In this document: in pieces, positions 10,773 to 59,221 of the stretch
How positions within the stretch are numbered: the stretch's first letter is position 1
Layout of the letters: each line of letters starts with the position of its first letter
NCBI GenBank assembly: GCA_965222225.1
Contig: CBDCTK010000002.1
Coordinates: 1,184,001 to 1,248,000 of the forward strand
Direction of reading: 5' to 3'
DNA from: Candidatus Poribacteria bacterium
GTDB lineage: Bacteria > Poribacteria > WGA-4E > JAJDTR01
Length of the DNA: 64,000 nucleotides
Notes under the pieces: generated by a model
Seen by the model: only the letters and a program-made list of their open reading frames with translations
Database searches by the model: none
What the model was told of the DNA's origin: nothing
Program-made: the position numbers and the translations under genes

Positions 10773-11585
10773 TTGACAAACAATCCTGTGGAAATGCTAG
10801 GCTCGGTTGAGAAGATAGCACGGGAAGCGGGCGAAATCTTGATGGACTATTTCGGCAGGATTGTCCAAGTGGAGTATAAGGGCATCGGCGATATTGTGAC
10901 GGAGGCGGACAAAACCTCTGAACAGTTCATCAAAACGAGCCTTGAGTCTCTATTCCCCAATGACTCTACACTTGGTGAGGAGTTTGGATTGTCCGACCTG
11001 CAGTCCGACAATTGTTGGGTTACCGATCCCCTAGACGGAACTGCCAATTATGCGGCTGGATTACCCATCTTTTCGATTGCTATAGGCCTGTTGTGCAACG
11101 GAAGCCCAATCCTAGGTGTTGTCTTTGACCCCAATACGGACCGGATGTTCAGCGCAGTGAAAGAGCAAACTGCGACGCTAAATGGCACTGCTATCCACGC
11201 GAACCGACGAGAAAAATTGGATGCTATCGGGCTATTTGGATTTTCCTCTGAGGTTATGAAAACTCTAAATCCCTTCTTGCAGAATCTTGCAAAGGGACGT
11301 TCGCTTGGCTCTGCTGCTCTCCACATCTGCGGCGTCGCTACCGGACATTTTGATGGTAGTCTCGATTATAATACAAAACTCTGGGATGTAACCGCTGCGG
11401 CAGCCATATTGGAAGCGGCAGGCGGGAGTATGACGTACCCATCCGGTGAAGCTATTTTTCCATTGCCGGCAGGTTCCCCCGCGTATCGCGGTGCTAATGT
11501 ACCTTTTTTGGCAACCAATGGAAAACTTCATGTGGAATGTGTGAACGAGCTAGTTCAAATCAGCCCTAACAGCGATAAGAATTAG
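10773..11585 (+). CDS. Inositol monophosphatase family protein
   Basis: DIVTEAD, LGEE, WVTDPLDGTANY, WDVTAA; TTG start chosen after GAGG (start uncertain). Confidence 0.9.
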   Translation: MTNNPVEMLGSVEKIAREAGEILMDYFGRIVQVEYKGIGDIVTEADKTSEQFIKTSLESLFPNDSTLGEEFGLSDLQSDNCWVTDPLDGTANYAAGLPIFSIAIGLLCNGSPILGVVFDPNTDRMFSAVKEQTATLNGTAIHANRREKLDAIGLFGFSSEVMKTLNPFLQNLAKGRSLGSAALHICGVATGHFDGSLDYNTKLWDVTAAAAILEAAGGSMTYPSGEAIFPLPAGSPAYRGANVPFLATNGKLHVECVNELVQISPNSDKN

Positions 11586-11798
11586 GGCAGGTATCATATA
11601 GATATTGTAGAACCCGCATTGTCTCGCAATCTATTTCGGATTTCTCGGTCAGCTCCACAGCGCTCCTAGAATCGGGATGTCCTGTTTTTCACATTTGGAC
11701 CGGAAACCACAAAGATGTCTGCGATTCGGGATACCATGGTCGTGGTAATTTTCCCAATTCGTACGACTCTGACAACCTTTACTACTGAGGAGATCTTT

Positions 11799-12326
11799 AT
11801 GGGAAATGTCATCTTACTAAATCCACTCGATCAAGGCGATATATCTGCCAAGTATCTCGCGCCGCGTCTAGATACCCTCAACGGTAAAACGATGGGGCTG
11901 CTCAACATCGGGAAGAATGGTAGCGATGTCTTTCTCCAACGCGTCGAAGAACTGATGTGTGAAGAATTTGATGTCGCGGAAGTTCTTCATGTCAACAAAC
12001 CGACATTCACACGACCGGCGCCCGAAGAGCTGATTATCCAACTTGCCAACCAGTGCGACTTTGTTGTTGAAGGCCTTGCTGATTGAGGTTCGTGCATATC
12101 GTGTAGTGTACACGACGGAGCAGCCTTGGAAGAACGCGGTATCCCATCCGTTGCCATCTGTTCGGAAGTATTCTTCGCGGCTGGTAAGGTCCAAGCAAAA
12201 GCACTCGGTTATAACGACCTTGAACCAATAACTGTCGGACACCCAATCCAAAGTTTGACCACAGACCAAATTCGGGGGCGGGCTGTCGGCATCGTTGAGA
12301 AAATCACCGCTGCATTGACAAGATAG
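11799..12326 (+). CDS. UGSC-family selenoprotein (in-frame UGA at 12084-12086 read as Sec)
   Basis: GAGGAG RBS + ATG; ...EGLAD-TGA-GSCISCSVHDG... continues in frame into ORF 12126-12326, giving 175 aa. Confidence 0.85.
12099..12115 (+). promoter_or_regulatory. Candidate bacterial SECIS hairpin
   Basis: TCGTGT-AGTGT-ACACGA perfect 6-bp stem starting 13 nt after the UGA. Confidence 0.55.
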
Positions 12327-12581
12327 CCGGGCTGAATCTGCGGCTCCTGAGCCAAACAATCTTAAACTCAGGAGTCCGGTGAACGGACAGACCACAAATG
12401 AACAGAAAGGCCAGTGTTTGAACCAATCTTGGCAATACAAATAAGCCACGACCAAAACAGTACCTTTTCTCGCCAATAAACACGACAACGCACATCCGAT
12501 ATGAAGATTGGTAATTTTTCGTAGTGGGCCAGTTTTGGAGATTGTATAAGCAACTGAGCGCGGAAGAGGAATGAATCGAGG

Positions 12582-13508
12582 ATGGCTAGCCAATATAAAC
12601 CAACGCTATTGGTCACCGGCGCTAGCGGTTTCGTCGGGAGGTCACTATGCAGTTCGGCGGCTGAAAATGGACATGGTGTTGTCGCATTGTCCCGTACACC
12701 GGACACTGCTAGCGCCCTACTCCCTCATGTGAAGAGGGTGGAAGCTTGGCGACCAAATACAGAGCTCGTCCCGCCTTCAACCTTATCCGACATCGGAGCT
12801 GTCGTTCATCTAGCTGGAGAAACCATCGGAGCAAGATGGAATCCTGATAAGAAACAGCGGATTCGAGAAAGTCGCGTAAACTCGACCAATCGGCTTGTAG
12901 AATCCCTATCGAAAGTTGAGCCAAAACCTGAGGTGTTGGTGTGCGCCTCAGCGATTGGATTTTATGGTGAAGGTGGTGACGAGGAATTCACAGAGGATTC
13001 CCCTCCGGGCAATGACTTCCTCGCTGAAGTCTGCCAGGATTGGGAGTTGGCGGCACAAAAGGCGGAAGCTTTGGGAATCCGTGTCGTCCGAATCCGGTTA
13101 GGCCATGTCCTTGGAAAAGATGGTGGCTTGCTTAGAACAATGCTTCCCCCATTTTACATGGGTGTGGGAGGCAGGCTAGGAAGTGGGACACAATGGATGT
13201 CATGGATTCATATTGATGATGTAGCGGGAATTTTACTATATGCCATCGAAAATCAAAACGTAAACGGCGTACTCAATGCCACGGCGCCAATCCCTATCAG
13301 AAACATTGAGTTCACAAAGACCCTTGGTCGCGTTATCCGGCGTCCAACCCTTTTTCCTGTACCCACTTTTGCGCTGAAGATGCGCTTTGGCGAGTTCACC
13401 GATTTTGTGCTCATGAGTCAGCGTGTTCTCCCGGAGAAAACCTTGTCAATGGGTTATGAATTCCGCTATGCAGATCTCGAATCGGCTTTACGGACATCTT
13501 TGGGTTGA
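12582..13508 (+). CDS. TIGR01777-family NAD-dependent epimerase (YfcH-like)
   Basis: TGASGFVG, VHLAGE, ASAIGFYG, GSGTQWMSWIHIDD, SQRVLP. Confidence 0.92.
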   Translation: MASQYKPTLLVTGASGFVGRSLCSSAAENGHGVVALSRTPDTASALLPHVKRVEAWRPNTELVPPSTLSDIGAVVHLAGETIGARWNPDKKQRIRESRVNSTNRLVESLSKVEPKPEVLVCASAIGFYGEGGDEEFTEDSPPGNDFLAEVCQDWELAAQKAEALGIRVVRIRLGHVLGKDGGLLRTMLPPFYMGVGGRLGSGTQWMSWIHIDDVAGILLYAIENQNVNGVLNATAPIPIRNIEFTKTLGRVIRRPTLFPVPTFALKMRFGEFTDFVLMSQRVLPEKTLSMGYEFRYADLESALRTSLG

Positions 13509-13589
13509 AAATCTAACAGGCAAAGTATGTGGTTAGTAAGTTGACATAGCAATGGGCTAACCCGACAGTGTCCGACCGCTCCTCGTATG

Positions 13590-14495
13590 TTAATGATGGG
13601 GCACGAGCATGTGCAATCTTATCGCAGCCTCTTGACCAATCTCCCCGCCAGTCTGAAGTTTAGTCGCCATCTCATAATCAGAGCGTGCTTGCTCAATATG
13701 TCTCAGACACTGGTAGGCAACGCCCCTGCGATAATAGACCAGTCCCAGAATCGGATGATTTTCCTCCCACATCTGAATCTCGGCAGTTGCGAGTTCAATG
13801 ACTTTGAGATAGTCTGATTCTGCATTTTGTCGCTGATCTAAGCGTTCATAAGTTTCTCCACGGTGAAGGTACGCCTCCGCAAACTCTGGCTCTATCTCTA
13901 TCCCCCTGTTAAAATCATCAAGTGCTAGTTCGTTCTCTTGTAGCCGCATAAAGGCTCGTCCCCGCTGGTAATATCCGGCCGCACCGCCATCTTTGCGCTG
14001 GATAACTGCGGTATAATCTGAAAGCGCACGCTGCTCTTCGCCAATCTGCAGATATACTTCTGCCCTTTTCCATATGACAAACGCCGCCCATCTTTCCTCA
14101 ATTGATGCTGTGTAATCTGTGATGGCTTGATGATAATCTCTTAACTCTCGATAGGCATCGCCACGACTATAATACGCTTCTGCTTCGTATCGCTTTAACT
14201 TAAGCACCTGATCGTAATCTGCAATTGCTTTACGGTATTCCCCAAGGCGGTAGTATGCGAGGCCCCTTCGGATTACGGCAAGAGCATGTTTCGGATTCTT
14301 CTCAATCGCGCGTGTAAAGGCGTGGACTGCGCCTTGATAATCATGATTCGAACCTTGCAGCAGGGAGGTTCCCTCGTTGACATATTCTACGACCATTGGG
14401 TCCTCCCCTTTGAGGCGCCCCCAACTGACAAACCGCGAGGCGAGCAGCATGCAGATAATCAACAGGGGCGTCATTATCCAAATCAGCGCGCGCAT
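13590..14495 (-). CDS. Membrane-anchored TPR protein
   Basis: AAGGAG RBS, N-terminal hydrophobic segment, repeated A.YY.RG..Y..L.....A..DY units. Confidence 0.88.
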   Translation of the reverse strand: MRALIWIMTPLLIICMLLASRFVSWGRLKGEDPMVVEYVNEGTSLLQGSNHDYQGAVHAFTRAIEKNPKHALAVIRRGLAYYRLGEYRKAIADYDQVLKLKRYEAEAYYSRGDAYRELRDYHQAITDYTASIEERWAAFVIWKRAEVYLQIGEEQRALSDYTAVIQRKDGGAAGYYQRGRAFMRLQENELALDDFNRGIEIEPEFAEAYLHRGETYERLDQRQNAESDYLKVIELATAEIQMWEENHPILGLVYYRRGVAYQCLRHIEQARSDYEMATKLQTGGEIGQEAAIRLHMLVPHH

Positions 14496-17028: not shown

Positions 17029-17062
17029 ATCAAGCGAACGGATAGTGAGTGCGATAGAGATC
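17029..17062 (+). repeat. 34-bp variable-slot unit inside a GTAG-type hairpin
   Basis: ATCAA GC GA AC GGAT A GT GA GT GCGATAG AG ATC between GTAGGCGGGG and CCCCGC. Confidence 0.85.
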
Positions 17063-27838: not shown

Positions 27839-27872
27839 ATCAACCGAGCGGATAGCGAGGGCGATAGTCATC
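27839..27872 (+). repeat. 34-bp variable-slot unit
   Basis: ATCAA CC GA GC GGAT A GC GA GG GCGATAG TC ATC. Confidence 0.85.
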
Positions 27873-35687: not shown

Positions 35688-35788
35688 TATTGTGCCGTCT
35701 CCATTCGATTCATTCTGTCTCCAAAGAGACCTAAAACTACTGTCTACCGCAGAGGTGATAACTTGCGTTGTACTCTCCTCTCGACTTA

Positions 35789-36111
35789 GAGCCTGTTTGA
35801 ATAATCGGTGGCAAAGCCATTTTTGGTCATTTGTAGAAAGTTTTTTCATGTTTTCATTGTTGGCTGCTACATACCTGTCACTATTCTATCGCACTCACTA
35901 TTCGCTCCCTTGATCCCACGCTGGGGCTTTTAGAGGCTGGTAGGATTTCTATCGCGCTCCCTAGAAGATCTCTATCAGGATTTACTATCGCCTTCGCTAT
36001 TCGCTCAGTTGATCCCTCGCTGTTCACTCGGTTGATCGCAGGGGATCTCTATCGCAGTCATTTTTCATTCCTTTGATCGCACCCTACAAACTGTACTTTT
36101 CAAACAGGCTC
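35789..36111. mobile_element. MITE copy 1, IS5-family-like (IS1031-type ends), 323 bp
   Basis: 13-bp TIR GAGCCTGTTTGAA/TTCAAACAGGCTC; TTA duplicated (35786-35788, 36112-36114); sits at the stop codon of the porV-like gene. Confidence 0.9.
35881..36077 (-). repeat. Cluster of variable-slot units inside MITE 1 (3 full, several partial)
   Basis: Full units 35881-35914, 35979-36013, 36044-36077; partial 35944-35962, 36015-36036. Confidence 0.85.
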
Positions 36112-37200
36112 TTAGAACCGAAGCATTAACTCAAAAACATTTAACCGTTTTCCTTCGGGACCCCGCGGCACTTCTACAGCGTAGTCAAATTGGTAGTCAA
36201 GCAATCTCACACCTAGACCATACGTTAGATGGTCCGAAAAATTCAGCAAGTCTATCCCCGGTTCCGTTTTGTAACCAACGCGCAATGCAAGGAGATTACC
36301 AAGCCAATACTCGGCGCCGATACTTTTCCGTAGATGCCTCCATTCAAGGGCGCGAATGCCAACACCCCGATTCGAAAGCACATCACTACGCGTTTCGTCA
36401 GGAAAGTCAGCCAAGCGTCTTTCTATCTCCTCTTCATCCTCTGTCAATTTATGGATAGATGCCGTCAAATCTCCAATGAGGTTGACCCGATGATTCGTTT
36501 CTTCGTAGAGTACCACTGCCGTCCCCATCTTGAATTTGCGAGGAAGAGGGTCGCTCTGATTCTCATCTATGAAGTGCAGACGCGTGCCCCAGTTCTGGAG
36601 GGCAGCGCCAATCTTGACTGGCACAAATGCATTCAACAAATCGTACTGCAATCCGAAATCAACGGCGTAAGCGCCCCCGCTCTCCCGTCCTAACTTCTGT
36701 CTGATAATCTTGCCATTCATGCCAGCAGAAAGCCGATCTGTCACTTGGTCTGCGTATGAAAACGTCAATACCCAATTCGTCCCGAGGTTTTCCTCTCTAA
36801 TCGGATTGGGAGAATCTGTTGTCACCAAGATGGTTCCTTGTCCTTCAAGCTGAAGCGTCGCTCCAAGGATGCCGACATCGCTAATCGGCATAGCTCCGGC
36901 AAAAAATGCATAGTACAATCCTTCGCCAGCTTCGCCGAAAATGTCCCCTTGGTTTTTGTACGAAATAGCCACCTGTTTCTCTTGAATAATTCCCAATCCA
37001 CTGGGATTCCATAAAGCGCTAGTCACATCGCCATCAACAGCAGTGAAGGCATCGCCCAATGCTGTCGCACGCGTCCCGCCGCCGAGATCGAGAATTTGAG
37101 AGCCTTGGGTGCCCGGTCCCGCCAATCCTGATGGTGGAGGCGAGATTATCGCCACAACCAAGACTATGTTAATTGCCAATATTAGGTTTACTCGCTGCAT
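36112..37200 (-). CDS. PorV/PorQ-family outer-membrane beta-barrel
   Basis: Signal peptide, GTRATALGDAFTAV..D...LWNPSGL, SDPLP, GAEYW..LALRVGY, terminal F. Confidence 0.85.
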   Translation of the reverse strand: MQRVNLILAINIVLVVAIISPPPSGLAGPGTQGSQILDLGGGTRATALGDAFTAVDGDVTSALWNPSGLGIIQEKQVAISYKNQGDIFGEAGEGLYYAFFAGAMPISDVGILGATLQLEGQGTILVTTDSPNPIREENLGTNWVLTFSYADQVTDRLSAGMNGKIIRQKLGRESGGAYAVDFGLQYDLLNAFVPVKIGAALQNWGTRLHFIDENQSDPLPRKFKMGTAVVLYEETNHRVNLIGDLTASIHKLTEDEEEIERRLADFPDETRSDVLSNRGVGIRALEWRHLRKSIGAEYWLGNLLALRVGYKTEPGIDLLNFSDHLTYGLGVRLLDYQFDYAVEVPRGPEGKRLNVFELMLRF

Positions 37201-37579
37201 TCATTAATCTCCTAGCACAAGCTCGTTGAAGTGAACCGTTTCCGCTACTTGCTAGAAAAAACGGGTAGAGTGCTGAACGGGTTTACAAACCGATGAGGTC
37301 GCGCTATACTACAGAGGTTGATTTCAACTGATTTTCGCGCCGCCGTCAATCTATTATGGAATACAATCGTATTGCACTTCAAAACGCTTAATGGATTGGA
37401 TTTTGAAATGATAGCCTACTACGGGAATAACTACAATGGAAAAGGATATTGTTTGAATGCACCTTAACATAAAGACTCGTTTCCCGCGTATTGAGCCAAC
37501 CCCGCAAGAGACCATCTAATTCATGCAAATTTAGAAAATAAGTTTCGCATTTTGAGCGAGGCGTGGAAAGGATAAAACT

Positions 37580-37624
37580 GGAAGATTGGAAGGGAATCTT
37601 CCAGCCTTCCAATCCTATTCTTCC
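37580..37624. repeat. GGAAGATTGG/CTTCCAATCC inverted intergenic repeat (second copy 63285-63376)
   Basis: Both share GGAAGATTGGA and the 19-mer CTTCCAATCCTATTCTTCC. Confidence 0.6.
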
Positions 37625-37682
37625 AAGTCGCGTCACAAGATGAACTTTAATACTGAAACCTGCTTATAGACAACCAAAAGAC

Positions 37683-39791
37683 ATGAAAAAGAATATAGCG
37701 GCGGGGGTTTTCCTAACTCTCTGGATGTGTAGCGTATGCCATCCCGCGGCGCCAATCCTCAGAGAGATTGAAGCCGTTCCGACCGATTCCCCGCCGAAGA
37801 TTGATGGCGCGCTCAATGACATCTGCTGGCAAAAAGCGGCTCAGTCGGGAAGTTTCGTCCAATACGATCCGCTATCGGGCGAGCCAGCGACTCAGCCAAC
37901 CAAAGTCTACCTTGCCTATGATCGGAATCGACTTTATGTCGGTTTTGAATGCTTCAAAGATGATATGAACAGACTCGCCGCAAATTCGACACGCCGGGAT
38001 GCTCGGTTCTTTTCCGATGATTATGTCGAGGTTTTCCTAGATACATACCTAGACAAACGAAACTGCTATGCCTTCGCATTGAATCCACTCGGGACACAAA
38101 GAGATCGTCGTATCACCAATGAAGGCTCAAACGTGAGACGCAGCGGATCCGGCTCGGGTTCTGCATTACCCTGGGACTGTGATTGGGATGGTCGCGCCGC
38201 AATCTATAAGAACAGGTGGACCGCCGAATTTTCTATCCCCTTTGCCGAACTCCGTTTTCCGAAATCTCAGAATCCTTCTGTAGCCTGGGGTGTCAATTTT
38301 TGGCGGCACGATGAATCACGTGAAGAAGATCAATCTTGGGTAAACCTTGGAAGCCGCCGATACGCCGTTTCGCGTTATGGTCACTTGACGAATCTGCCCG
38401 TGAATACGCTTGCGACCAAACGACTGTTGGAGATAAAGCCGTATGGCGTTGCCAAACCGCAACAACTAAACGCCCAAAGCCCGGAAATGAAAGCCGATAT
38501 GGGTCTCGATTTGCGTTACCCGTTCTCGAACATGTCGGTAGATTTCACGATAAACCCCGACTTCGCGCAAATTGAGGCAGATCCGGATCGGATCAATCTG
38601 ACGGATATTCCGTTACGTTTCCCGGAAAAGCGTCCCTTCTTTCTGGAAGGAAATGAAATTTTTCAGATGCCGGTCGAATTGTTCTATAGCCGGCGTGTAG
38701 GAGATTTGTCAGGCGGTGCGAAGATGGCTGGCAAGGTTGGTGGATACAATCTTGCTGCCCTTAGTGCGCAGGCAGGCCCAGAGTATCCGGATGAAGAGAT
38801 TGAAGAAGGGCACCTACCCTTAGACGAATATAACTACTCCGTCTTCCGTCTCCAGCGAGAGTTGGGAAGGACATCGTCAGTCGGGTTCTTGGGAGTCAAC
38901 AAGCAGCGCGGGGGTTTGTACGATAGGGCATCCGGAGCGGATGCTCGATTTACACTGCCGGGCAACATAGATCTTAATCTCGAATATGCGAGAGAATGGA
39001 AATCCGGCGTCAAGAGCGACGATCTGGTTTTTGCCCAACTTACTCGCCAAACCAATCGCTTCTCATTTGATGTGCGTTATACCGACATCGGCGAACACTT
39101 TGATTTGGAGACCGGCTTTATTCCACGCATCGATCGCCGTGGGATTTTCCTTTCCACGCAGTACACCAAGCACTACGAGGGATTAATAAAACGCTTTCGC
39201 GGCCGTGTCAGATATGAACTCCTGGAAAATCATGCCGGACAACGCACCAACGAAAACCGGGACGTTAATGGATCAATCAGAATCCAAGATTTTTCCCTTT
39301 GGCTTGCGCCCCAATGGTATTTTCACGTGACTGAAGACGATATCGCCTATACAGATAAGCTCCTCAGGTTCTACCTTGGCTGGTCACCACCAAAATGGGT
39401 GTCAATTCGGAACTTCGGGTCAGTGGGAGTTCGAGATGATAAGGATAGTTTTTTCATTAGACCCGAGATTACCCTGCGTCCGACCTCGAAGCTCAATTTT
39501 GAAATCACCCTACAACGTCTGATTGAAGATCGCGAACTTGTAGAATGGACTCGGCGGATCACAGTCAACTACCAATTCGCACAGCGCATGTACGCAAGGA
39601 CTAGTGCGGAAGTTACCATAGAAATGGAACGACGTGTATTCGTCCTATTTGCCTACGAATATCGACCCGAAAGCACCTTTTTTGTTGTCTATAACGACAA
39701 CCGAGACGAAGAGGCGATACTGAGCGTATTTTATTTGTCAAAATCTCACATCTGTTTAAGTTGGGGATGTGGTAAGGCCTATTTTGATTAG
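37683..39791 (+). CDS. CBM9-like/DUF5916 exported protein; probable 1-nt frameshift near the C-terminus
   Basis: PKIDG.L.D..W, W.AEF.IPF.ELRF, NPDFAQIEAD, EKRPFFLEG; adding one G near 39713 gives ...GDTERILFVKISHLFKLGMW*. Confidence 0.85.
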   Translation: MKKNIAAGVFLTLWMCSVCHPAAPILREIEAVPTDSPPKIDGALNDICWQKAAQSGSFVQYDPLSGEPATQPTKVYLAYDRNRLYVGFECFKDDMNRLAANSTRRDARFFSDDYVEVFLDTYLDKRNCYAFALNPLGTQRDRRITNEGSNVRRSGSGSGSALPWDCDWDGRAAIYKNRWTAEFSIPFAELRFPKSQNPSVAWGVNFWRHDESREEDQSWVNLGSRRYAVSRYGHLTNLPVNTLATKRLLEIKPYGVAKPQQLNAQSPEMKADMGLDLRYPFSNMSVDFTINPDFAQIEADPDRINLTDIPLRFPEKRPFFLEGNEIFQMPVELFYSRRVGDLSGGAKMAGKVGGYNLAALSAQAGPEYPDEEIEEGHLPLDEYNYSVFRLQRELGRTSSVGFLGVNKQRGGLYDRASGADARFTLPGNIDLNLEYAREWKSGVKSDDLVFAQLTRQTNRFSFDVRYTDIGEHFDLETGFIPRIDRRGIFLSTQYTKHYEGLIKRFRGRVRYELLENHAGQRTNENRDVNGSIRIQDFSLWLAPQWYFHVTEDDIAYTDKLLRFYLGWSPPKWVSIRNFGSVGVRDDKDSFFIRPEITLRPTSKLNFEITLQRLIEDRELVEWTRRITVNYQFAQRMYARTSAEVTIEMERRVFVLFAYEYRPESTFFVVYNDNRDEEAILSVFYLSKSHICLSWGCGKAYFD

Positions 39792-40009
39792 CGGAGTGAT
39801 TTGGAAACTTTATCGTGCCTGAATCAATCGACCCGGCAGATCGGGATTCGCTTGTCGGCTTCTTTGACATTGACACGCCTCCTCCCCGTTGGTTAGAATT
39901 CCCCGATTGATAAGATTCATGGCATCAAATCGTTGAACGAGAACGTCCTAGTTCTATGCCCTAGGCATGGGGCTTTTCAGCGCCCATCTTAATTCGTGCG
40001 GACGGATTT

Positions 40010-41551
40010 ATGAAACATTATCGAAATAATATTCTCGCAGTTGTTTCCGGGATTTTGCTAGTCTTGAGTCACCCCAGTTTTAACCTGTTCCCGCTCGCAT
40101 GGGTAGGATTGGTGCCGCTGTTAATAGCCATAAAGTCTGTCTCAAACGCGAAATCTGCCTTCCGGATAGGATATATTTCGGGATTGACGTTCTTCGCGGG
40201 GCTCCTCTACTGGATTGTCCTGCTCTATCCGTTTGCACACATCTTTGTAACCGTGCTGGGCTATGTCGCTCTCGTCGCTTACGCCGCCCTTTACTTTGCC
40301 GTCTTTGCCCTAGTTGTGCACCAATTGCCGCGTAAATCCGGGATATCCTTCATTTTTCCGACAGCACTGTTTTGGACGGGGTTGGAGTGGATTAGGAGTT
40401 GGCTACTGACAGGCTTCCCATGGGGCAGTATGGGATACTCGCAGTGGAACAATCATGCCGGAATTCAAATTGCCTCGATTACCGGAGTTTACGGCGTCAG
40501 CTTTGTTGTCGTGCTCTTCAACGCGGCAATCGCATATCTAATCATCTCGTCTTCCAACTGGCGAAGAGCAACCAAGAGTGTTGCATTTCCAATCGCCATT
40601 GTGGCACTCACGTTCGTTTACGGTGCATTTTGTTTGTCCGATTCCGGAAACTCGGTAGCGCACGTTAAACTCGCGCTTGTTCCCGGCAATGTCTCGCAAG
40701 CCGAGAAGTGGAAATCGGAACACGCCCCGAAGATTTTCAGGCGATATATCAGTTTAACCGAACAGACGAATGCCGCTAACCCGGATATAATTGTCTGGCC
40801 CGAAACTGCGATTCACCCCCAAATACTATCCGGGCAGGCGGAATCCTACAGGCAGCGTTTATTCGAGATGCTGCGAGAGCATCAAACCTATCTGCTCGCC
40901 GGTGCCGCCGTGCGAGAGGCTGATAAGAAGTTCTATAATAGCGTTTTTCTTCTCTCCCCGGCGGGTGAGAAGCTTGGCAGCTATTCCAAGATGCACCTCG
41001 TGCCCTTCGGGGAATACGTGCCGTTCTCCAGCGCTCTCCCAAACTTCATCCAATTTGAGACCTTCGCACCCGGGAAGTCAATTAACCTACTACCGCTCGC
41101 CAGCATAAAGGATGCCAAAGTCGGTATTGCGATCTGTTTCGAGTCCGTGTTCCCCAATCTCTTTCGCAAGTTCGTAGCGAAAGGCGCGGACATCATGGGA
41201 ATCTTGACCAACGATGCTTGGTTTGTAGGCACAACGGCGCCTGCCCAACACCTATCCGCCGCGCCGTTCCGTGCCGTCGAAAACCGCATCTCCGTTTTCC
41301 GCTGCGCCAACGGAGGAATCTCCTGCATAATAGATCCGTTCGGGAGGATAGTGAGCCAGACTATCACCCCGACCCAACCTGATGGCGTTCTGGTAGAAGA
41401 CGTCCCTTTGAAAAATCATCAGAACACGAAACAAACGCTATACACCCGCTACGGCGATTGGTTTCCAATCCTATGTCTGCTGGCAAGCCTCGTACTAATT
41501 GGTCATAGGAACCGAACGCGGATCCACTCCAAACTCAGGCGGTACACCTGA
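40010..41551 (+). CDS. lnt: Apolipoprotein N-acyltransferase
   Basis: GFPWG..GYSQ, VWPETA, KMHLVPFGEYVP, ICFES, TNDAWF, RAVEN, TLYTRYGDW. Confidence 0.96.
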   Translation: MKHYRNNILAVVSGILLVLSHPSFNLFPLAWVGLVPLLIAIKSVSNAKSAFRIGYISGLTFFAGLLYWIVLLYPFAHIFVTVLGYVALVAYAALYFAVFALVVHQLPRKSGISFIFPTALFWTGLEWIRSWLLTGFPWGSMGYSQWNNHAGIQIASITGVYGVSFVVVLFNAAIAYLIISSSNWRRATKSVAFPIAIVALTFVYGAFCLSDSGNSVAHVKLALVPGNVSQAEKWKSEHAPKIFRRYISLTEQTNAANPDIIVWPETAIHPQILSGQAESYRQRLFEMLREHQTYLLAGAAVREADKKFYNSVFLLSPAGEKLGSYSKMHLVPFGEYVPFSSALPNFIQFETFAPGKSINLLPLASIKDAKVGIAICFESVFPNLFRKFVAKGADIMGILTNDAWFVGTTAPAQHLSAAPFRAVENRISVFRCANGGISCIIDPFGRIVSQTITPTQPDGVLVEDVPLKNHQNTKQTLYTRYGDWFPILCLLASLVLIGHRNRTRIHSKLRRYT

Positions 41552-41713
41552 AGCATCACTGGATTCCCCGCACACATGTAAGAGCCCTCGCCTGATGGCG
41601 CACTTCATTTTGCTCTTTTATTTGCACATCAACACTTTTTTGCGTTACAATTCCCATGATGTTTCACAAGACAGTACTCTTCAATTCCGAATAACAAAAG
41701 GACGTTTCTCGCC

Positions 41714-42016
41714 ATGTTTATCCAAACCCCAGACGGTACGCTTGTGAACCTAAATCAAGTAGGCGGAATCAAAATTATCAAAGAGGAAGCAGCTCGTACT
41801 TATCCTACCAGATTTGGACACAGCCTCTATGCTATCCTTCCAGCCGGTATGGGTATAGTTGCACCTGAACCCCTTGAACAACACCATATACTTTTGGTAA
41901 GCGGACGGGATTACGACCAATGCATTTACGTCCTTAACGACATAAAAAAACATCTTGAATCGAAAGATTCGTTTATGGTGTTAAAGTGTCCTGATCCACA
42001 ACAATCGACACCTTAA
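41714..42016 (+). CDS. Hypothetical protein
   Basis: 100-aa ORF preceded by a TTGCAC..TACAAT promoter-like sequence and AAGGA. Confidence 0.6.
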   Translation: MFIQTPDGTLVNLNQVGGIKIIKEEAARTYPTRFGHSLYAILPAGMGIVAPEPLEQHHILLVSGRDYDQCIYVLNDIKKHLESKDSFMVLKCPDPQQSTP

Positions 42017-42106
42017 AACAGGGCACGGATAACATTTCTGCAATAATCCTTTTCGGAAGCACAAGGAATTTATGTAACTCCAATCGAAATGAAAGGACAT
42101 CGGACA

Positions 42107-42517
42107 ATGAAAGAAACTTTGGAGTTGTTCCTAACACCGGGAGTATTGGCCCTCGGAATAGCGATGCTGGCAATCATGTTCCGCATGACTCACAAACGAA
42201 TTGATGATTTGCGCTCCCAGATGGTGTCCGACCATAACCATCTTTCCGAAAAACTGGAAGTTATCGATCACAGGTTGTCTGAAAAGATTGACGCTGTCGA
42301 TAAGAGGCTGTTTGAAAAGATTGACGCCGTTGATAAGAGGCTGTCTGACAAGATTGACGCTGCTGATAAGAGGCTGTCAGGAATGATTAATACCCTTGAC
42401 CAGCAAATACACGGTATGAATCAAAGAATTGACACATTCAACAATCAGTTTGCCGCACATTTGGAATCGCACCGTTTTACCAACACACATAATCGCGCTA
42501 ACGGCGTTCGTCAATGA
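42107..42517 (+). CDS. Membrane-anchored coiled-coil protein with 11-aa tandem repeats
   Basis: N-terminal TM; about 4.5 copies of LSEKIDAVDKR (33-bp period, 42242-42390). Confidence 0.8.
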   Translation: MKETLELFLTPGVLALGIAMLAIMFRMTHKRIDDLRSQMVSDHNHLSEKLEVIDHRLSEKIDAVDKRLFEKIDAVDKRLSDKIDAADKRLSGMINTLDQQIHGMNQRIDTFNNQFAAHLESHRFTNTHNRANGVRQ

Positions 42518-42639
42518 ACGCAGCACGATAGACGAGATTCCATAAGCAGAAAAATTTTACTAACTACTTCCCAGAGAAGAACCGTTCCACCGCGCCCCGT
42601 TCCGCCAGTTCTGCTTTCGTATAATGAGCCGGCATAGCG

Positions 42640-42986
42640 GGCACCTTCCCAACACCTATCCGCCGCGCCCTTCCGTGCCGTCGAAAACCGTATCTCCGTT
42701 TTCCGCTGTGCGAACTGAGGCATCTCCTGCATAATCGATCCGTTCGGGAGGATAGTAAGCCAGACTATCACCCCGACCCAACCTGATGGCGTTCTGGTAG
42801 AAGACGTACCGTTGAAAAATCATCATAGCGCGAAACAAACGCTATACACCCGCTACGGCGATTGGTTTCCAATCCTATGTCTGCTGGCAGGCCTCGTACT
42901 AATTGGTCATAGAGGAACCGAACGTGGATCCACTCCAAACTCAGGCGGTACACCTGAAGCATCACTGGATTCCCCACACACATGTA
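42640..42986 (+). pseudogene. Duplicated, inactivated 3' end of lnt
   Basis: Direct repeat of 41236-41580 with GGA>TGA and a 2-nt insertion. Confidence 0.9.
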
Positions 42987-43142
42987 GGAGCGATCTCCTG
43001 ATCGTGGACAAGTCAATTCGAGACCTGAAACTCTCCGATTTTACCTTCTCTTTTAGTTATTGAACCGGTCTCTAATCGTCCACTTGCAAGCGACGCCCTG
43101 CACCGTCTTTTTACAGAACACTTCCTTCAATACCAAGACGGA

Positions 43143-43176
43143 ATCAAGCGAACAGGCAGTGAATGCGATAGTGACT
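43143..43176 (+). repeat. 34-bp variable-slot unit
   Basis: ATCAA GC GA AC AGGC A GT GA AT GCGATAG TG ACT. Confidence 0.75.
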
Positions 43177-43559
43177 CCCGTGCGAGATTGTCAGTCTCTC
43201 ATCAACGATTAGTCTTGTCCTAATATTGACGAATTTGGGGAATCAAACATGTGTTCTGCGCTTTAGAAGGTATTACACAAACGTATCTCAATTCCCTCTC
43301 GTGTCAGGCGCAAGATACGGATGCGATTGCCGCATCCGGTACCCGAGAAAAAGTTGCGAAAACGGGGCGGCAATGTTAACATTCTATCAATGATTAACGT
43401 TTCAGAGTTTTCAGAGTAGGCGTGAGAAATATAGCTAGACAGAAAACGGCGAAAGTCCATGCCAGGACTGATGTCTCGGCGGTTTCACAAGACGGGTACT
43501 CGGAATGATACTCTGAAACGGGGGCGATTTTTAATGCTGGTTCTGGCGTAATACGGAGG

Positions 43560-44498
43560 ATGACCATGACGGCAAAGAAGACTAATGCTTCACTTCAAAA
43601 CGCGCTTCAAGGTAGGGCGATGAGCAAGGGACGCACAGAACTTGGATCGGATATAAGGAAGTTGCTAGATACGTTAGATGGGGATGAGCGTGTTGAGGCG
43701 GTTATTGAGCGGGTGCAACGATATACGGTCGAGGCAGCGGGTAGAACCGTAGACTCCGACTTTCGCCTGATGGGGAAACATCTAGCCGATGAGATTAAGG
43801 AGATAATCTGCAAAGAATTGGCGCCATACGTATCGTCCTATATCTCAGATGCACACCGGGAATTGGTCGTCCACGCTCATGCGCGCGGGTTATCTACCGC
43901 CGATGCGGTTCGGACGTTGATATTGGAAGACCGTACGATGAATCGGCTGGCGCAAGAGGACGCTGTGGGCGTGGAAGATTTACGCACAATCTTGATTCAT
44001 CGGTTATCGTATCTTAAGCCGGGGACGGCGCGATGGCCCGAAGCGAAGTACGGTTCGGTGTGGCGCGAAGCGCGGGAAGAGTATAGGCAACAAGTCAGTG
44101 ATATTCCGTTCACCTCTCAAGCGGAGCAGGCTGCGCTTTTAGCCAAGAATGCGGAGCGGATAAACCGTGCTTTAGACAATGAAAAAAATTCCGTCAAAGA
44201 TATTCAAATGCTGACAAATTCGCTGACCAAAACCTTGGAGAGTCTGCGAAAGCTATCGGCGGTTGACGAGCCGATGCCTGCGAGTCTGTCCGGGGTTCAG
44301 CTTGTCGGCGTGCTGGAGCGGTTGACGCTTGCCTTGGGAGCACCCGAACAGAAACAGCTTGGTGGCGATGCGAAGGAACTGGTTGGAGTTTTGGAGCACT
44401 TAACGCTTGCATTGAAAGCGCCGCAGCGAGAGCGGACGGGCAACGGAGTTAAGGCACTGCCTTCGGAGGCGGACGCGGACGACGGCAAAGCAGAATAA
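43560..44498 (+). CDS. Hypothetical protein with DUF2280-like (phage small terminase-like) segment
   Basis: GGAGG RBS; KY..VW.EARE.Y....SDIPF resembles DUF2280 by eye. Confidence 0.55.
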   Translation: MTMTAKKTNASLQNALQGRAMSKGRTELGSDIRKLLDTLDGDERVEAVIERVQRYTVEAAGRTVDSDFRLMGKHLADEIKEIICKELAPYVSSYISDAHRELVVHAHARGLSTADAVRTLILEDRTMNRLAQEDAVGVEDLRTILIHRLSYLKPGTARWPEAKYGSVWREAREEYRQQVSDIPFTSQAEQAALLAKNAERINRALDNEKNSVKDIQMLTNSLTKTLESLRKLSAVDEPMPASLSGVQLVGVLERLTLALGAPEQKQLGGDAKELVGVLEHLTLALKAPQRERTGNGVKALPSEADADDGKAE

Positions 44499-44683
44499 TA
44501 CGGCAGAAACGACGAGTCGTCTTTTTTTCGAGGCGTTGACGTGGCGACTTTCACACTCATCCCTTGTTTTATCATCAAGCATTTTAGCCTGACCGAGTAG
44601 GTCGGCTTTTTCCCCTTGAATCTCCCTCATTTATGTCTAAAGGATAGTGGGAAAGTTTAATGACAGTCGACTGTCTTTTTTGA

Positions 44684-44712
44684 TTGACAACTACTCATAT
44701 GTATAGTATAAT
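44684..44712 (+). promoter_or_regulatory. Consensus sigma70 promoter
   Basis: TTGACA-N17-TATAAT; palindrome GACAGTCGACTGTC (44662-44675) just upstream. Confidence 0.8.
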
Positions 44713-44802
44713 GTGGACGTGGCCCGATGGAATGGGAATGGTAGCTCCCCAATTTGTTTTAATGCTCGGATTACATCTTACTTGAAAGGAGACATTCCAC
44801 GA

Positions 44803-45606
44803 ATGAAAGTAAGAATTCTAGTCACGCTTGAGGTAATTGACAACGGCTGGCTCGACCCTGCACGTAGGGCGTCAACGTGCACCGTGGCGCAGGCGCTGGT
44901 AAACGCGAAGATTGTGAGGGATACGCTCGGAGTCGACGTTTTGAACGACACAGTCTTGCTGCGGTTGCCGAATGATGGAGATCAATCCGTGTTTACCGTG
45001 TCACTGGCGTTTTCGGAATGGATTCGTAAGTTTGATCGATGGACAGCCGTCCGGAGCAATTATCAAAAATGGCGCAAAGAATGCGCAGACTTACGACGAC
45101 TTGGAAAGACGGACTTGCCGCCAATGCCAGCAATCAAGGGAAAAGCGGCGACGCCCGTTACAGTCATCATGGACACTGAAGAACAACACGTCTCTATCGA
45201 AGGCGATCCAGCATCCAAGAGCGAGAGGGTTGTGCTCCCGCCATCCTATCGCGATAGGTATCTTCTAAGTATCCGTGACAATTTTGAGTCACTACTGCGA
45301 TTAGACACAGAACGCTTCAATTCACTCTGCAGTTATCTTCACGTAGTGGCGGGAGGACAATTGTCGAGTTCTGTCCGGAGGATGGGTCCCCCGGGGAAGA
45401 GCAAGGCGTACCCACAAACCGTGGTCAAGCCTGTATCGAATTACAGCGGCAACTCTGGCGATGTCCAGGCACACTCTCCGGAAAAATACAGCATGTCAAC
45501 CCAGCGCGACAAAATGTCAAAGAACCAGAATGGTTCAAAATGCCCAAAATCGCCGTCCGTTTATCCGTCTGAATACCAGAACCCCCAACTCGATCTAAAA
45601 TCGTGA
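44803..45606 (+). CDS. Hypothetical phage-like protein
   Basis: AAAGGAG RBS; I.VT..VID.G...C.VA.AL...WI.KFDR pattern shared with 55978. Confidence 0.65.
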   Translation: MKVRILVTLEVIDNGWLDPARRASTCTVAQALVNAKIVRDTLGVDVLNDTVLLRLPNDGDQSVFTVSLAFSEWIRKFDRWTAVRSNYQKWRKECADLRRLGKTDLPPMPAIKGKAATPVTVIMDTEEQHVSIEGDPASKSERVVLPPSYRDRYLLSIRDNFESLLRLDTERFNSLCSYLHVVAGGQLSSSVRRMGPPGKSKAYPQTVVKPVSNYSGNSGDVQAHSPEKYSMSTQRDKMSKNQNGSKCPKSPSVYPSEYQNPQLDLKS

Positions 45607-45656
45607 ATGTGACGGCAAAGCGTAGTCATCCGAGGTGACAGTCGTACATAACCTAA

Positions 45657-45890
45657 GAGCCTGTTTGAATAATCGGTGGTAAAGCCATTTTTGGTCATTT
45701 GTAGAAAGTTTTTTCATGTTTTCATTGTTGGCTGCTACATACCTGTCACTATTCTATCGCACTCACTATTCGATCGCTTGATCCCACGCTGGGGCTTTTA
45801 GCGGCTGGTAGGATTTCTATGGGATTTCTATCGCACTCGTTATCCACTCGTTTGATCGCACCCTACAAACTGTACTTTTCAAACAGGCTC
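45657..45890. mobile_element. MITE copy 2 (same family as 35789-36111), 234 bp
   Basis: Same TIRs; TAA duplicated (45654-45656, 45891-45893); variable-slot units at 45749-45782 and 45823-45856. Confidence 0.9.
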
Positions 45891-46773
45891 TAAGAATGAG
45901 ACACAACTACAAGTTGGCGTGATTTGGTGCGTTGGAATAGCATTATCCTGAAGGATATCGTGGTAGCCGCTGAAACCTATGTCGGCGAGAGTCTCGCAAG
46001 CGGACCAGGCGACCTTACAACGAGAATAGCGAAGATAAACCTAAGCGTGGTAGTGGAAAGACGTACCTTCAGTCGCAGCCACAAGAGGTAACTAACATTC
46101 GGGTGATAAAACCATGAGCCACCGAAAAACCTATGCCAATGCCCCAAATGGTATGTGGTTGTTTCCGCAGAGTTCCTGCGAGACATATTAACCGAGTATT
46201 TGAATCATCCAGAATACGGCAAGGACTTCAGTATCCATCAGCACTGTTTCATGTGTGCCAATGATGACCGAACTGAATCCTATACTATAAGATGGCCTGA
46301 TAACACCTGAGAGCGGTCCTGAAGAATTGTTCGGGGACCTACCTCACCCAAACATGTTGAATGCCCTGTTTGTTGGATCGCGAGACGGCACTCTGACGAT
46401 TCCGTCGAGATTCTCAAACACCGACAACTAACAACAAACTGGGAAGACTGGGGGACCTTGCCCGCAGGGTAGAAGTAAAAGCTAATTGTCGGCGTGCAAG
46501 AGGCAATCTTACTAGCATAACTTCGACAAGAGAAGACTTCGGCGCGGGGCGGTTGACATTGCGACTCATGATGTGGATGATTTTAATGATGATGTAAAAG
46601 GCGTGCGTTCCCACTTGGCTAACCCCCTGTCCGCCTCCCGCATCGCCTTAGGAGCTACTCACTTAGGCCGATGCCCTTCCACAAGTGAGAAGGGGAGTTC
46701 AGCGAGGCGTGCATCGTCGTGGCTTTTGCAACTCCACTAAACGCAATAGAGATATGCAATACCTGGCGGCGTT

Positions 46774-50180: not shown

Positions 50181-50244
50181 GTTAGGATCAAGCGACTGAT
50201 TAAGGAGCGCGATAGAAATCTCAGAGAGCACAGCGAAACCCAAC
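50177..50244 (+). repeat. Same REP as 48714 with a variable-slot unit (50187-50220) inside; partial unit at 50339-50361
   Basis: GTAGGTTAGG[ATCAA...ATC]TCAGA-GAGCACAGCGAAACCCAAC. Confidence 0.85.
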
Positions 50245-55642: not shown

Positions 55643-55738
55643 ATTAAGCGAGTGGATAGCAATCAAGGGAACGGATAGTGACCGATCAACTGAGTGGATA
55701 ACGAAGGCGTTAGGGATCTTATAGCGACTGCGATAGAG
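55643..55738 (+). repeat. Head-to-tail array of partial and full variable-slot units
   Basis: Truncated units at 55643 and 55662, full unit 55685-55718, 3'-half unit 55721-55738. Confidence 0.8.
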
Positions 55739-59187: not shown

Positions 59188-59221
59188 AATCTCTATCGCA
59201 CTCCCTGTTCGGTCATTTGAT
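59188..59221 (-). repeat. 34-bp variable-slot unit inside a GTAG hairpin downstream of katG
   Basis: Minus strand GTAGGGCAG...ATCAA AT GA CC GAAC A GG GA GT GCGATAG AG ATT...CTGCCC. Confidence 0.85.

Follow-up and report, generated by a model that had tools for sequence, protein, structure and literature searches.

Two near-identical miniature inverted-repeat transposable elements (MITEs), MITE1 and MITE2, lie in a 64,000-nt stretch of the genome of a Candidatus Poribacteria bacterium (contig CBDCTK010000002.1, positions 1,184,001 to 1,248,000; hereafter the window). The short repeat units within them are probably independent insertional hairpin elements of 35-36 nt, by whose nested gain and loss the two MITEs would have come to differ. 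The genome, that of a sponge symbiont, is prokaryotic (5.70 Mb, 50% G+C) and is designated G000; coordinates of the form C2:n refer to it, other G numbers denote comparison genomes, and plain positions are those of the window. The first-pass annotation of the window had proposed that units are added, or the variable positions (slots) within them rewritten, faster than the background diverges. No new diversification mechanism is needed to account for that finding.

A family of covarying hairpin units

The unit is recognized by a 25-nt scaffold, TCGC-NN-TC-NN-TAT-YC-NN-TC-NN-TTGA; with up to two mismatches allowed over its 17 fixed positions, the genome contains 1,098 matches and a reversed-genome control three. 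MITEs contain a minority of these copies: 959 of the 1,095 chromosomal units (88%) are located outside greedy open reading frames (ORFs), which span 81% of the DNA, and 449 of 702 clusters are solo units. Neighbouring units less than 150 nt apart have the same orientation in 226 cases and opposite orientations in 64, and 243 of 1,094 inter-unit gaps are shorter than 100 nt. The structured strand of the unit is the complement of the MITE1 strand, on which it reads 5' (A)TCAA-NN-GA-NN-GRATA-NN-GA-NN-GCGA-TAGAGATCC(C) (the GA form, as opposed to the TC form of the MITE1 strand). The eight slots are four NN/NN base pairs that flank a tandem G.A/A.G mismatch and a GRATA loop, the predicted hairpin consisting of two 2-bp helices around the tandem G.A/A.G with a 5-nt closing loop.

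The pairing is evident from covariation. A mutual-information scan of 75 aligned columns ranked the four nested slot pairs highest (1.11, 0.94, 0.74 and 0.41), and 894 of the 1,098 units are fully paired, with 3,632 Watson-Crick cells and 175 mismatches among 4,392 pair cells. The wobble cells comprise 492 that are G.T on the GA strand (A.C on the MITE1 strand) versus 93 that are G.T on the MITE1 strand; since an A.C cell of the MITE1 strand corresponds to G.T on its complement, the structure is evidently kept on the GA strand. The 1,098 units carry 276 slot signatures, and since the stems vary freely provided that pairing is kept, a single scaffold seems to recur with varying slot contents; the variable slots are compensatory stem variants of a single repeat family. 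In 73 units sampled independently from other genomes, by a pattern that left the slots free, 97.5% of 284 cells pair (versus 72.5% in shuffles and 16-63% in slid controls) and 75 cells have double changes (versus 12 expected), values attained by none of 500 shuffles. RNAalifold recovered the hairpin together with an outer 3-bp ATC/GAT helix in the consensus fold. Covariation between leader and tail was not seen, and the window contains no Rfam family at the gathering threshold, MITE1 giving only chance-level matches to small nucleolar RNAs (E >1).

Evidence for precise insertion into hairpin repeats

In-silico excision, in which candidate lengths were removed at each unit and the rejoined 10 + 10-nt flank was sought elsewhere in the genome, identified 84 of the 1,098 units for which the removal of exactly 35-36 nt restores a 20-mer that occurs elsewhere. 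The best offset classes account for 34, 22, 17 and 15 matches, whereas most others yielded 0-7 and shifted diagonals 9-13. The 84 restored sites have no target duplication, and insertion is 3' of G or GA; the junctions include GA^TC (14), GA^GT (13), GA^AT (8) and CG^CA or CG^TA (16), and a tally of the junction list gives a 5' flank of GA in 48 cases and of CG or GG in 27. The targets include GTAGGAGCGA^TCTCC in a family of repetitive extragenic palindromes (REPs), REP-B, of which up to 43 empty copies exist, GAATAACGA^TCGTTATTC in a further REP, CTGCG^CACC in the right-arm palindrome of the MITE (up to 39 empty copies), and older units, which are entered in the loop (GA^ATA) and at the 3' tandem GA (GA^GT). 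For REP-B, 34 empty copies compare with roughly 10 that contain unit-like inserts, as read from the 16 longer inserts listed. Since older units are also targets, partial units can be understood as nested insertions and their remnants.

Identical 37-mers occur in unrelated flanks in 38 groups (151 pairs). Across 400 kb of synteny, G000 and G005 are about 86% identical, and of the 13 syntenic intergenic gaps that hold units, none has units in both genomes.

One array of clustered regularly interspaced short palindromic repeats (CRISPR; C2:2705500-2707900, approximately 11500-13900 of locus L188), whose repeat is GTAGCAACCATTGCCSCGAYGAAAAGSGGACTGAAAG and whose spacers measure about 35 nt, is located downstream of genes for type I Cas6, Cas3, Cas7/DevR, Cas5 and Cas1 (Pfam; the Cas5 match, at 20.8 bits, is under the cut-off of 23). 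By reading, 4 of its 12 repeats are split after ...GAYGAAAAG by unit blocks, and the array contains 20 unit cores.

Strand and orientation

GTAG is found no more than 18 nt upstream on the GA strand of 292 units, versus 27 for CTAC; thus, units enter GTAG-type REPs in one orientation. Over 40 bins, unit orientation is correlated with GC skew (Spearman 0.68, p = 1.3e-6) and uncorrelated with gene strand (rho 0.15). Of 653 clusters, 425 have the GA form on the C-rich strand (p = 1e-14), as do 79 of 123 solo units that lack a nearby GTAG or CTAC (p = 0.002). Relative to co-directional flanking genes, orientation is nearly even (348 versus 298). A replichore pattern is not visible by position alone and is seen only against local GC skew. 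That orientation tracks GC skew favours a DNA process, single-stranded and linked to replication, over an RNA function.

MITE1 and MITE2 differ by whole units

MITE1 and MITE2 (Table 1) have the ends GAGCCTGTTTGAA and TTCAAACAGGCTC in common, are 97.6% identical over the first 164 nt, and are reciprocal best matches. Pairwise alignment agreed with the counts in the first-pass annotation: MITE1 is longer by 89 bp (323 versus 234 bp), there are two substitutions outside the units (35812 C/T and 35934 A/C), the first common unit differs at two slot bases (35905 and 35908), and the unit adjoining CACCCTAC differs at seven positions (36047, 36057, 36060, 36063, 36065, 36068 and 36071), of which four are paired slots, two are in the loop and one is in the leader. 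Each of the two substitutions in the first common unit disrupts a pair, and both resemble ordinary point mutations. The two units adjoining CACCCTAC are distinct, non-homologous elements in equal positions, so that their seven differences are not mutations of a single unit.

Comparison with other loci argues for the same conclusion. The 50-nt block of MITE1 at 35967-36016 matches exactly a solo unit in an unrelated context, and the 49-nt block of MITE2 at 45811-45859, with its left context, matches exactly a MITE (copy at C2:2721347) that contains three more units after this block, the last of which has the signature AG/AT/AT/CT, as found beside the right arm of MITE1. Such exact copies of units elsewhere, present for these two blocks, count against the inference of the first-pass annotation, which had itself named them as evidence to the contrary. 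AG/AT/AT/CT is the commonest signature beside the MITE right arm (29 of 63 such units), and AG/GC/GC/CC is found in 14 of 49 units beside the left arm. Among MITE pairs with arm divergence <0.2 (14 of 45 copies have a unit abutting the right arm), the right-arm-abutting units differ at no slot in 21 pairs, at 4-7 slots in 23, and at 1-3 slots in none, which indicates whole-unit replacement rather than rewriting or diversification. Thus, MITE1 and MITE2 differ by whole-unit gains and losses in a hotspot and not by slot editing. The idea that units change faster than their background survives in the sense that gain and loss of whole units outpaces change in the backbone (2-4 substitutions versus several unit-level indels), and slippage of identical neighbouring copies, as had been stated, does not account for the differences; the idea of rewriting in place does not survive, the slots being covarying base pairs of a hairpin.

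Both insertions are lineage-specific, judging from orthologous sites: that of MITE1 is empty in G001, G002, G005, G007 and G009, and at that of MITE2 the matches to the two flanks adjoin directly in G005, so that the site is empty there. Public sequencing data contain the locus in 20 runs from 11 studies. Contigs from four of the public runs enter both ends of MITE1 from the flanks and stop about 25 nt inside, and the MITE interior in these four runs, for which only contigs were used, is a pile-up of all copies; contigs from RNA libraries extend to the MITE ends, which is not proof of transcription.

Another MITE contains 10 units in a single orientation (C2:1578266-1578699), including a run with a 38-nt period in which the spacer TCCTACAAGACTA between units is constant and the stems vary; one of its units combines halves of its neighbours and is mispaired.

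Mode of movement and alternative explanations

According to the explanation that we consider likely, the unit would insert 3' of G or GA, with no target duplication, into hairpin-prone DNA, namely GTAG-type REPs, the right-arm palindrome of the MITE, older units (in the loop or at the 3' GA), and CRISPR repeats. The full and partial units of the MITE arrays would result from insertions nested in one another, and MITE1 and MITE2 are recent sister copies of an IS5-family MITE. The manner of movement is proposed more tentatively: the unit may move as single-stranded DNA in a replication-linked reaction catalyzed in trans by an enzyme of the HUH/Y1 type, for which the shape of the hairpin, its tandem G.A and loop, and the flanking sequence would be the recognition features. 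Since no cognate enzyme was identified, this mechanism is one that we infer. The hairpin being thermodynamically weak, its pairing is probably read within a protein complex. It is conceivable, although rather doubtful, that the units represent an undescribed class of minimal single-hairpin mobile DNA, a hyperparasite of other hairpin repeats that spreads by a replication-coupled single-strand reaction, is recognized by a tandem sheared G.A between freely covarying 2-bp stems, and depends on an enzyme that is not a cognate RAYT, with a strand polarity unlike that of IS200/IS605.

Several observations weigh against the explanation that we consider likely. A verifiable empty site exists for only 84 of the 1,098 units, and the element boundary moves by one base according to target class (TCAA..GATCCC after GA, ATCAA..GATCC after G). 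The comparison of G000 with G005 gave no clean single-unit indel; as the units were within blocks of 170-420 nt that differ between the species, the case for single-unit mobility comes from paralogues within the genome. Complementarity between the flanks of units does not significantly exceed that of permuted pairs (66 versus 54), and the idea that units are placed in the loops of flanking hairpins was rejected on that ground. Folded as DNA, three units gave 0, -0.8 and -2.5 kcal/mol with no hairpin predicted; folded as RNA, two of them gave weak hairpins (-2.7 and -3.7 kcal/mol) and the third gave -10.1 kcal/mol with the inner helix not predicted, and no folding Z-score was significant except in this last case, so that for these three units thermodynamic folding alone does not support a stable hairpin. 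The search for a cognate enzyme was negative, the flanks read for Y1 transposase genes and for their homologues in other genera bearing REPs of other families and not the unit (L002 having neither nearby), and none of the four Y1 types searched matches the unit in its distribution among genomes. The strand on which the 5' flank of the unit is conserved is the C-rich one, which seems opposite to the polarity reported for IS608 and ISDra2; given this polarity, a simple mechanism of the IS200/IS605 type may not apply. Finally, GC skew is no more than a proxy for the direction of replication, and the gene calls are greedy ORFs.

Four other explanations were weighed. Diversification in place, with units added and slots rewritten faster than background mutation, could draw on the concentration of variation in the slots, on the 38-nt array with the same spacers and different slots, and on the nearly independent assortment of inner and outer stem identities among the 276 signatures. 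It is largely refuted and now scarcely credible: slot differences between homologous MITE units are never 1-3, signatures persist across diverged MITEs, blocks of the arrays have exact copies elsewhere, and the 38-nt array is explained by leaders ending in GTAGGA, which regenerate the GA target so that successive insertions stack head to tail. Selection by the host of structural elements kept locus by locus, whether as RNA terminators, stabilizers or protein sites or as DNA sites for nucleoid proteins, is also very improbable. Units that are even in orientation relative to co-directional genes and uncorrelated with gene strand, that are never shared between the two species in the 13 syntenic gaps, that interrupt CRISPR repeats and REPs, and that match nothing in Rfam at gathering thresholds are not what this explanation predicts, although it accords with the 88% of units in intergenic positions, the tolerance of G.U-type wobble on one strand only, and the hairpin as the minimum-free-energy fold of two of three units with RNA parameters. 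Complementary stem variants have, moreover, been taken to argue that many REPs may act as RNA (Di Nocera et al. 2013, PMC3733652).

Recombination alone, by which immobile repeats would have spread through unequal crossing-over, gene conversion and slippage between scaffolds, has in its favour that the MITE2 array matches the one at C2:2721168 except that the units lying between two GCGATCAA/TTGATCGC repeats are missing, that the array at C2:1578266 contains a chimeric, mispaired unit, and that units are clustered. It probably accounts for the deletions. As an explanation of the whole family it is improbable, given the predominance of solo units, the 84 clean insertions of 35-36 nt into intact repeats of unrelated families with no shared homology where they inserted, the identical elements in unrelated flanks, and an orientation that is fixed relative to GTAG and biased with respect to GC skew even for solo units. 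The main mechanistic rival is template switching, in which a growing strand that stalls within a hairpin repeat and ends in ...G or ...GA would re-anneal on another unit, copy about 35 nt and return; it differs from the explanation favoured here in mechanism alone. Its targets would be hairpin-prone repeats, as observed, and it would need no cognate transposase; the 5' junction is always G^ATCAA or GA^TCAA, resembling microhomology, with a boundary that shifts by one base with the target, and the C-rich strand, where the GA form is enriched, is the one with the lagging-strand sequence. We nevertheless regard it as unlikely, because the 3' end of the insert is sharp at 35 or 36 nt, the return junction has no visible microhomology (the downstream dinucleotides being TC, GT, AT, AC and CA), and the tandem G.A, the loop and the strict pairing, which copying does not need, imply recognition of a folded strand.

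Distribution and relation to known repeats

In a sample of 176 genomes of the phylum, the strict unit pattern was present in at least 100 copies per genome only in the genus of the window (10 of 10 genomes) and in one genus of another family (4 of 4); six genomes had 1-14 copies and 156 had none, and a reversed-pattern control gave none throughout. In a named genome collection, all 105 unit matches listed are Candidatus Poribacteria records. A search of the accessible literature found no report of such repeats in Poribacteria.

The closest known analogue of the unit family, so far as descriptions can be compared, is the small dispersed repeat (SDR) family of Nostocaceae. The unit family has a well-defined structure, target rule and strand bias. 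SDR1-8 were reportedly described by Elhai et al. in 2008 (Genome Res 18:1484) as very small, high-copy Nostocaceae repeats that are nested, structured and precisely inserted. We know of no enzyme that mobilizes them, and to our knowledge the question of how these cyanobacterial repeats move is still unsolved. Like SDR elements, the unit is very small and high-copy, is nested in MITEs and in other units, has a structure with compensatory changes, and is inserted precisely and without duplication at a short specific site (unit sites include GCG^ATC.. and GCGA^TC). Unlike them, it has a host of the Poribacteria type in which HIP1 is not enriched, a length of 35-36 nt (as against a reported 21-27 nt), a tandem G.A hairpin with a GRATA loop, and an orientation that follows GC skew; it also targets hairpin repeats generally (REPs, the MITE palindrome, CRISPR repeats and its own loop), and the comparison is with SDR elements as described, not with their sequences. 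A cyanobacterial origin with a HIP1 context was considered and rejected (GCGATCGC has 117 copies versus about 86 expected, and the matches listed are poribacterial). One source places SDR5 between nucleotides 3 and 4 of HIP1 (PMC4390886), and another states that SDR-like repeats are absent outside Nostocaceae among HIP1-rich cyanobacteria (PMC5861425).

The unit resembles REPs and REPINs in being a short, extragenic, strand-specific hairpin with hundreds of copies and complementary stem variants; REP subfamilies with alternative complementary stem residues are described in PMC3733652. Several classical pairs of REPs with REP-associated tyrosine transposases (RAYTs) coexist with the unit in the genome. 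However, the unit lacks a GTAG or CGTC tag at the base of its hairpin, its consensus having TCAA at the 5' side and GCGATAGAGATCC at the 3' side, and the GTAG near 292 units belongs to the invaded REP. Its stem of 2 + 2 bp (with the 3-bp ATC/GAT helix of the consensus fold) is interrupted by the conserved tandem G.A; no cognate single-copy Y1 gene flanked by units was identified; and, unlike REPINs, it is found mostly solo or in head-to-tail arrays and not in inverted doublets. Thus, inserting as it does into REPs, the unit behaves as a parasite of REPs and not as a REP.

Like IS200/IS605 elements and their gene-less derivatives, the palindrome-associated transposable elements, the unit has no target duplication, inserts 3' of a short specific sequence, and has a hairpin-defined end and one structured strand; its orientation, judged by GC skew, may likewise be linked to replication, and Y1 transposases are present in the genome. 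In contrast to these elements, it is a single 17-nt hairpin with no separate left and right ends, its target is merely G or GA, no autonomous insertion sequence (IS) with its ends was found, and its polarity relative to GC skew appears opposite to that reported for IS608 and ISDra2. A MITE of Porphyromonas gingivalis bears a minisatellite (PMC4596501) and is similar in being IS-derived with copies that differ chiefly in the internal array; the internal repeats described here differ from it in being an independently dispersed element found mostly outside MITEs and not a slippage minisatellite.

The unit family is unusually clean material for studying how repeats of a few dozen bases move: each of at least 14 genomes, from two genera, carries about a thousand copies, exact pairs of empty and filled sites number in the dozens, covariation defines a structure with an invariant tandem G.A, and the orientation is fixed relative to REPs and linked to GC skew. 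If the units are indeed a class of minimal single-hairpin mobile DNA, they would be the first tractable system for the movement of very small mobile repeats of the SDR type and a natural route of CRISPR array disruption. Apparent variable-slot arrays in MITEs can be layered, nested mobile hairpins, and the breakage of REPs and CRISPR repeats by units matters for repeat annotation, for the assembly of sponge-symbiont genomes and for the reading of CRISPR arrays.

The host MITE family and the units of the window

The MITE family comprises approximately 58-80 copies of 61-700 bp. Pairs of ends at MITE-size distance have identical 3-nt flanks in 56 of 80 cases, 54 of which are TTA or TAA. The same ends are borne by an 887-bp IS (five copies of 887 bp and one of 873 bp, e.g. 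C2:822152-823038), the 263-aa ORF of which matches DUF4096 (87 bits) and DDE_Tnp_1 (85 bits). By these matches, the transposase is of the IS4/IS5 type, and this IS5-family element is the parent of the MITE, which has the attributes of an IS-derived MITE: ends in common with an IS that encodes a DDE transposase, a short target duplication, and insertion polymorphism. The MITE core is composed of other repeats, namely a doublet of REP-A, a hairpin with a TGTC tag (CCTGTCGCCCCKCTGGGGC), together with a palindrome of the GTAG type (GTAGGGTGCGCACTGCGCACC, read on the complementary strand). In the window, the terminal 13-mer has five matches with up to two mismatches, versus 1.6 expected; an isolated 13-mer at 42304-42316 (GAGGCTGTTTGAA) is one mismatch from the MITE end and has no partner end close by. 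The units of the window, within and outside the two MITEs, are listed in Table 1.

Table 1. MITEs and repeat units in the window.
Feature	Position	Strand	Remarks
MITE1, IS5-family-derived MITE, 323 bp, 13-nt terminal inverted repeats	35789..36111	+	TTA duplication 35786-35788 / 36112-36114
Unit core in MITE1, TC form, slots AC/AC/GC/CC	35889..35913	+	common with MITE2; private leader CACTATTCTA
Truncated unit in MITE1: leader + TCGC-GC-TC-CC-TA, ends within loop	35942..35963	+	read as remnant of nested insertion/deletion
Unit in MITE1 with compound leader, slots CT/GC/GC/AG	35967..36016	+	exact 50-nt copy at non-MITE locus C2:4541921
Half unit in MITE1, 3' half alone: TGT-TC-AC-TC-GG-TTGATCGC	36017..36039	+	tandem repeat row 35994-36037
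Terminal unit of MITE1, slots AG/AT/AT/CT	36041..36077	+	private TTT loop
MITE2, sister of MITE1, 234 bp	45657..45890	+	TAA duplication 45654-45656 / 45891-45893
Unit core in MITE2, slots AC/AC/GA/GC	45757..45781	+	homologous to 35889-35913
Orphan leader + terminal unit of MITE2, slots AC/GT/AC/GT	45811..45859	+	exact 49-nt copy in MITE C2:2721168-2721554
Non-MITE unit core	17030..17054	-	strand of TC form
Non-MITE unit core	27840..27864	-	strand of TC form
Non-MITE unit core	50188..50212	-	strand of TC form; 1 scaffold mismatch
Non-MITE unit core	55686..55710	-	strand of TC form; 1 scaffold mismatch
Non-MITE unit core	59196..59220	+	strand of TC form; 1 scaffold mismatch

Y1 transposases and their REPs

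The genome contains at least seven Y1 genes or remnants (five PF01797 matches and two more RAYT-like genes or remnants), six of which adjoin a REP of a family other than the unit; the seventh (L002, present in 3 of 41 genomes) has no REP or unit nearby. For three types (L001, L003 and L005), homologues in other genera bear an equivalent kind of REP, and the units near these genes are insertions into those REPs. L001 is the sole IS200-type gene (NF033573, 65.8 bits; the RAYT model gave 30.6 bits, below its cut-off of 80) and is flanked by TGTC-tagged REP-A, not by the unit, at 14 loci in four genera. The possibility that L001 and L005 are RAYTs flanked by inverted units was rejected, since their homologues have other REPs into which the units are inserted. 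A scan for ORFs with units on their flanks yielded 101, including 24 whose flanking units are inverted, and gave no candidate beyond L001.

A 157-aa IS200-type Y1 transposase (C2:3080255-3080728, and loci L007-L019 elsewhere) has, in several genera, inverted copies of the TGTC-tagged hairpin CACCTGTCGCCCCKCTGGGGC, or of CGCTCC..GGAGCG variants, on either side. REPs of the CGTC type are tabled without a transposase association by Di Nocera et al. (2013, Table 1, PMC3733652). Besides this gene, at least six other Y1 or RAYT genes or remnants are found at C2:2563962, 3088877, 3560268, 3727535, 3836069 and 1545570; five of these six each have a distinct REP (GTAGGAGCGAYCTCC.., GTAGGGAATAACGATCG.., GTAGGCAnACnCCGT.., GTACCGCAAACTGTTAG.. 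and GTAGGCGATCGGGAG..), and the locus at C2:2563962 has no adjoining REP. The REP/RAYT complement of this genome is unusually rich. L003 (C2:3088877-3089350) has matches in G003, G004, G005, G007, G009, G020 and G033, and several of these sequences contain a single in-frame stop, which is mostly TAG (in L003 of G000 and in the matches of G009, G004, G005 and G033) and TAA or TGA in others; the genes with such a stop could be pseudogenes or something else.

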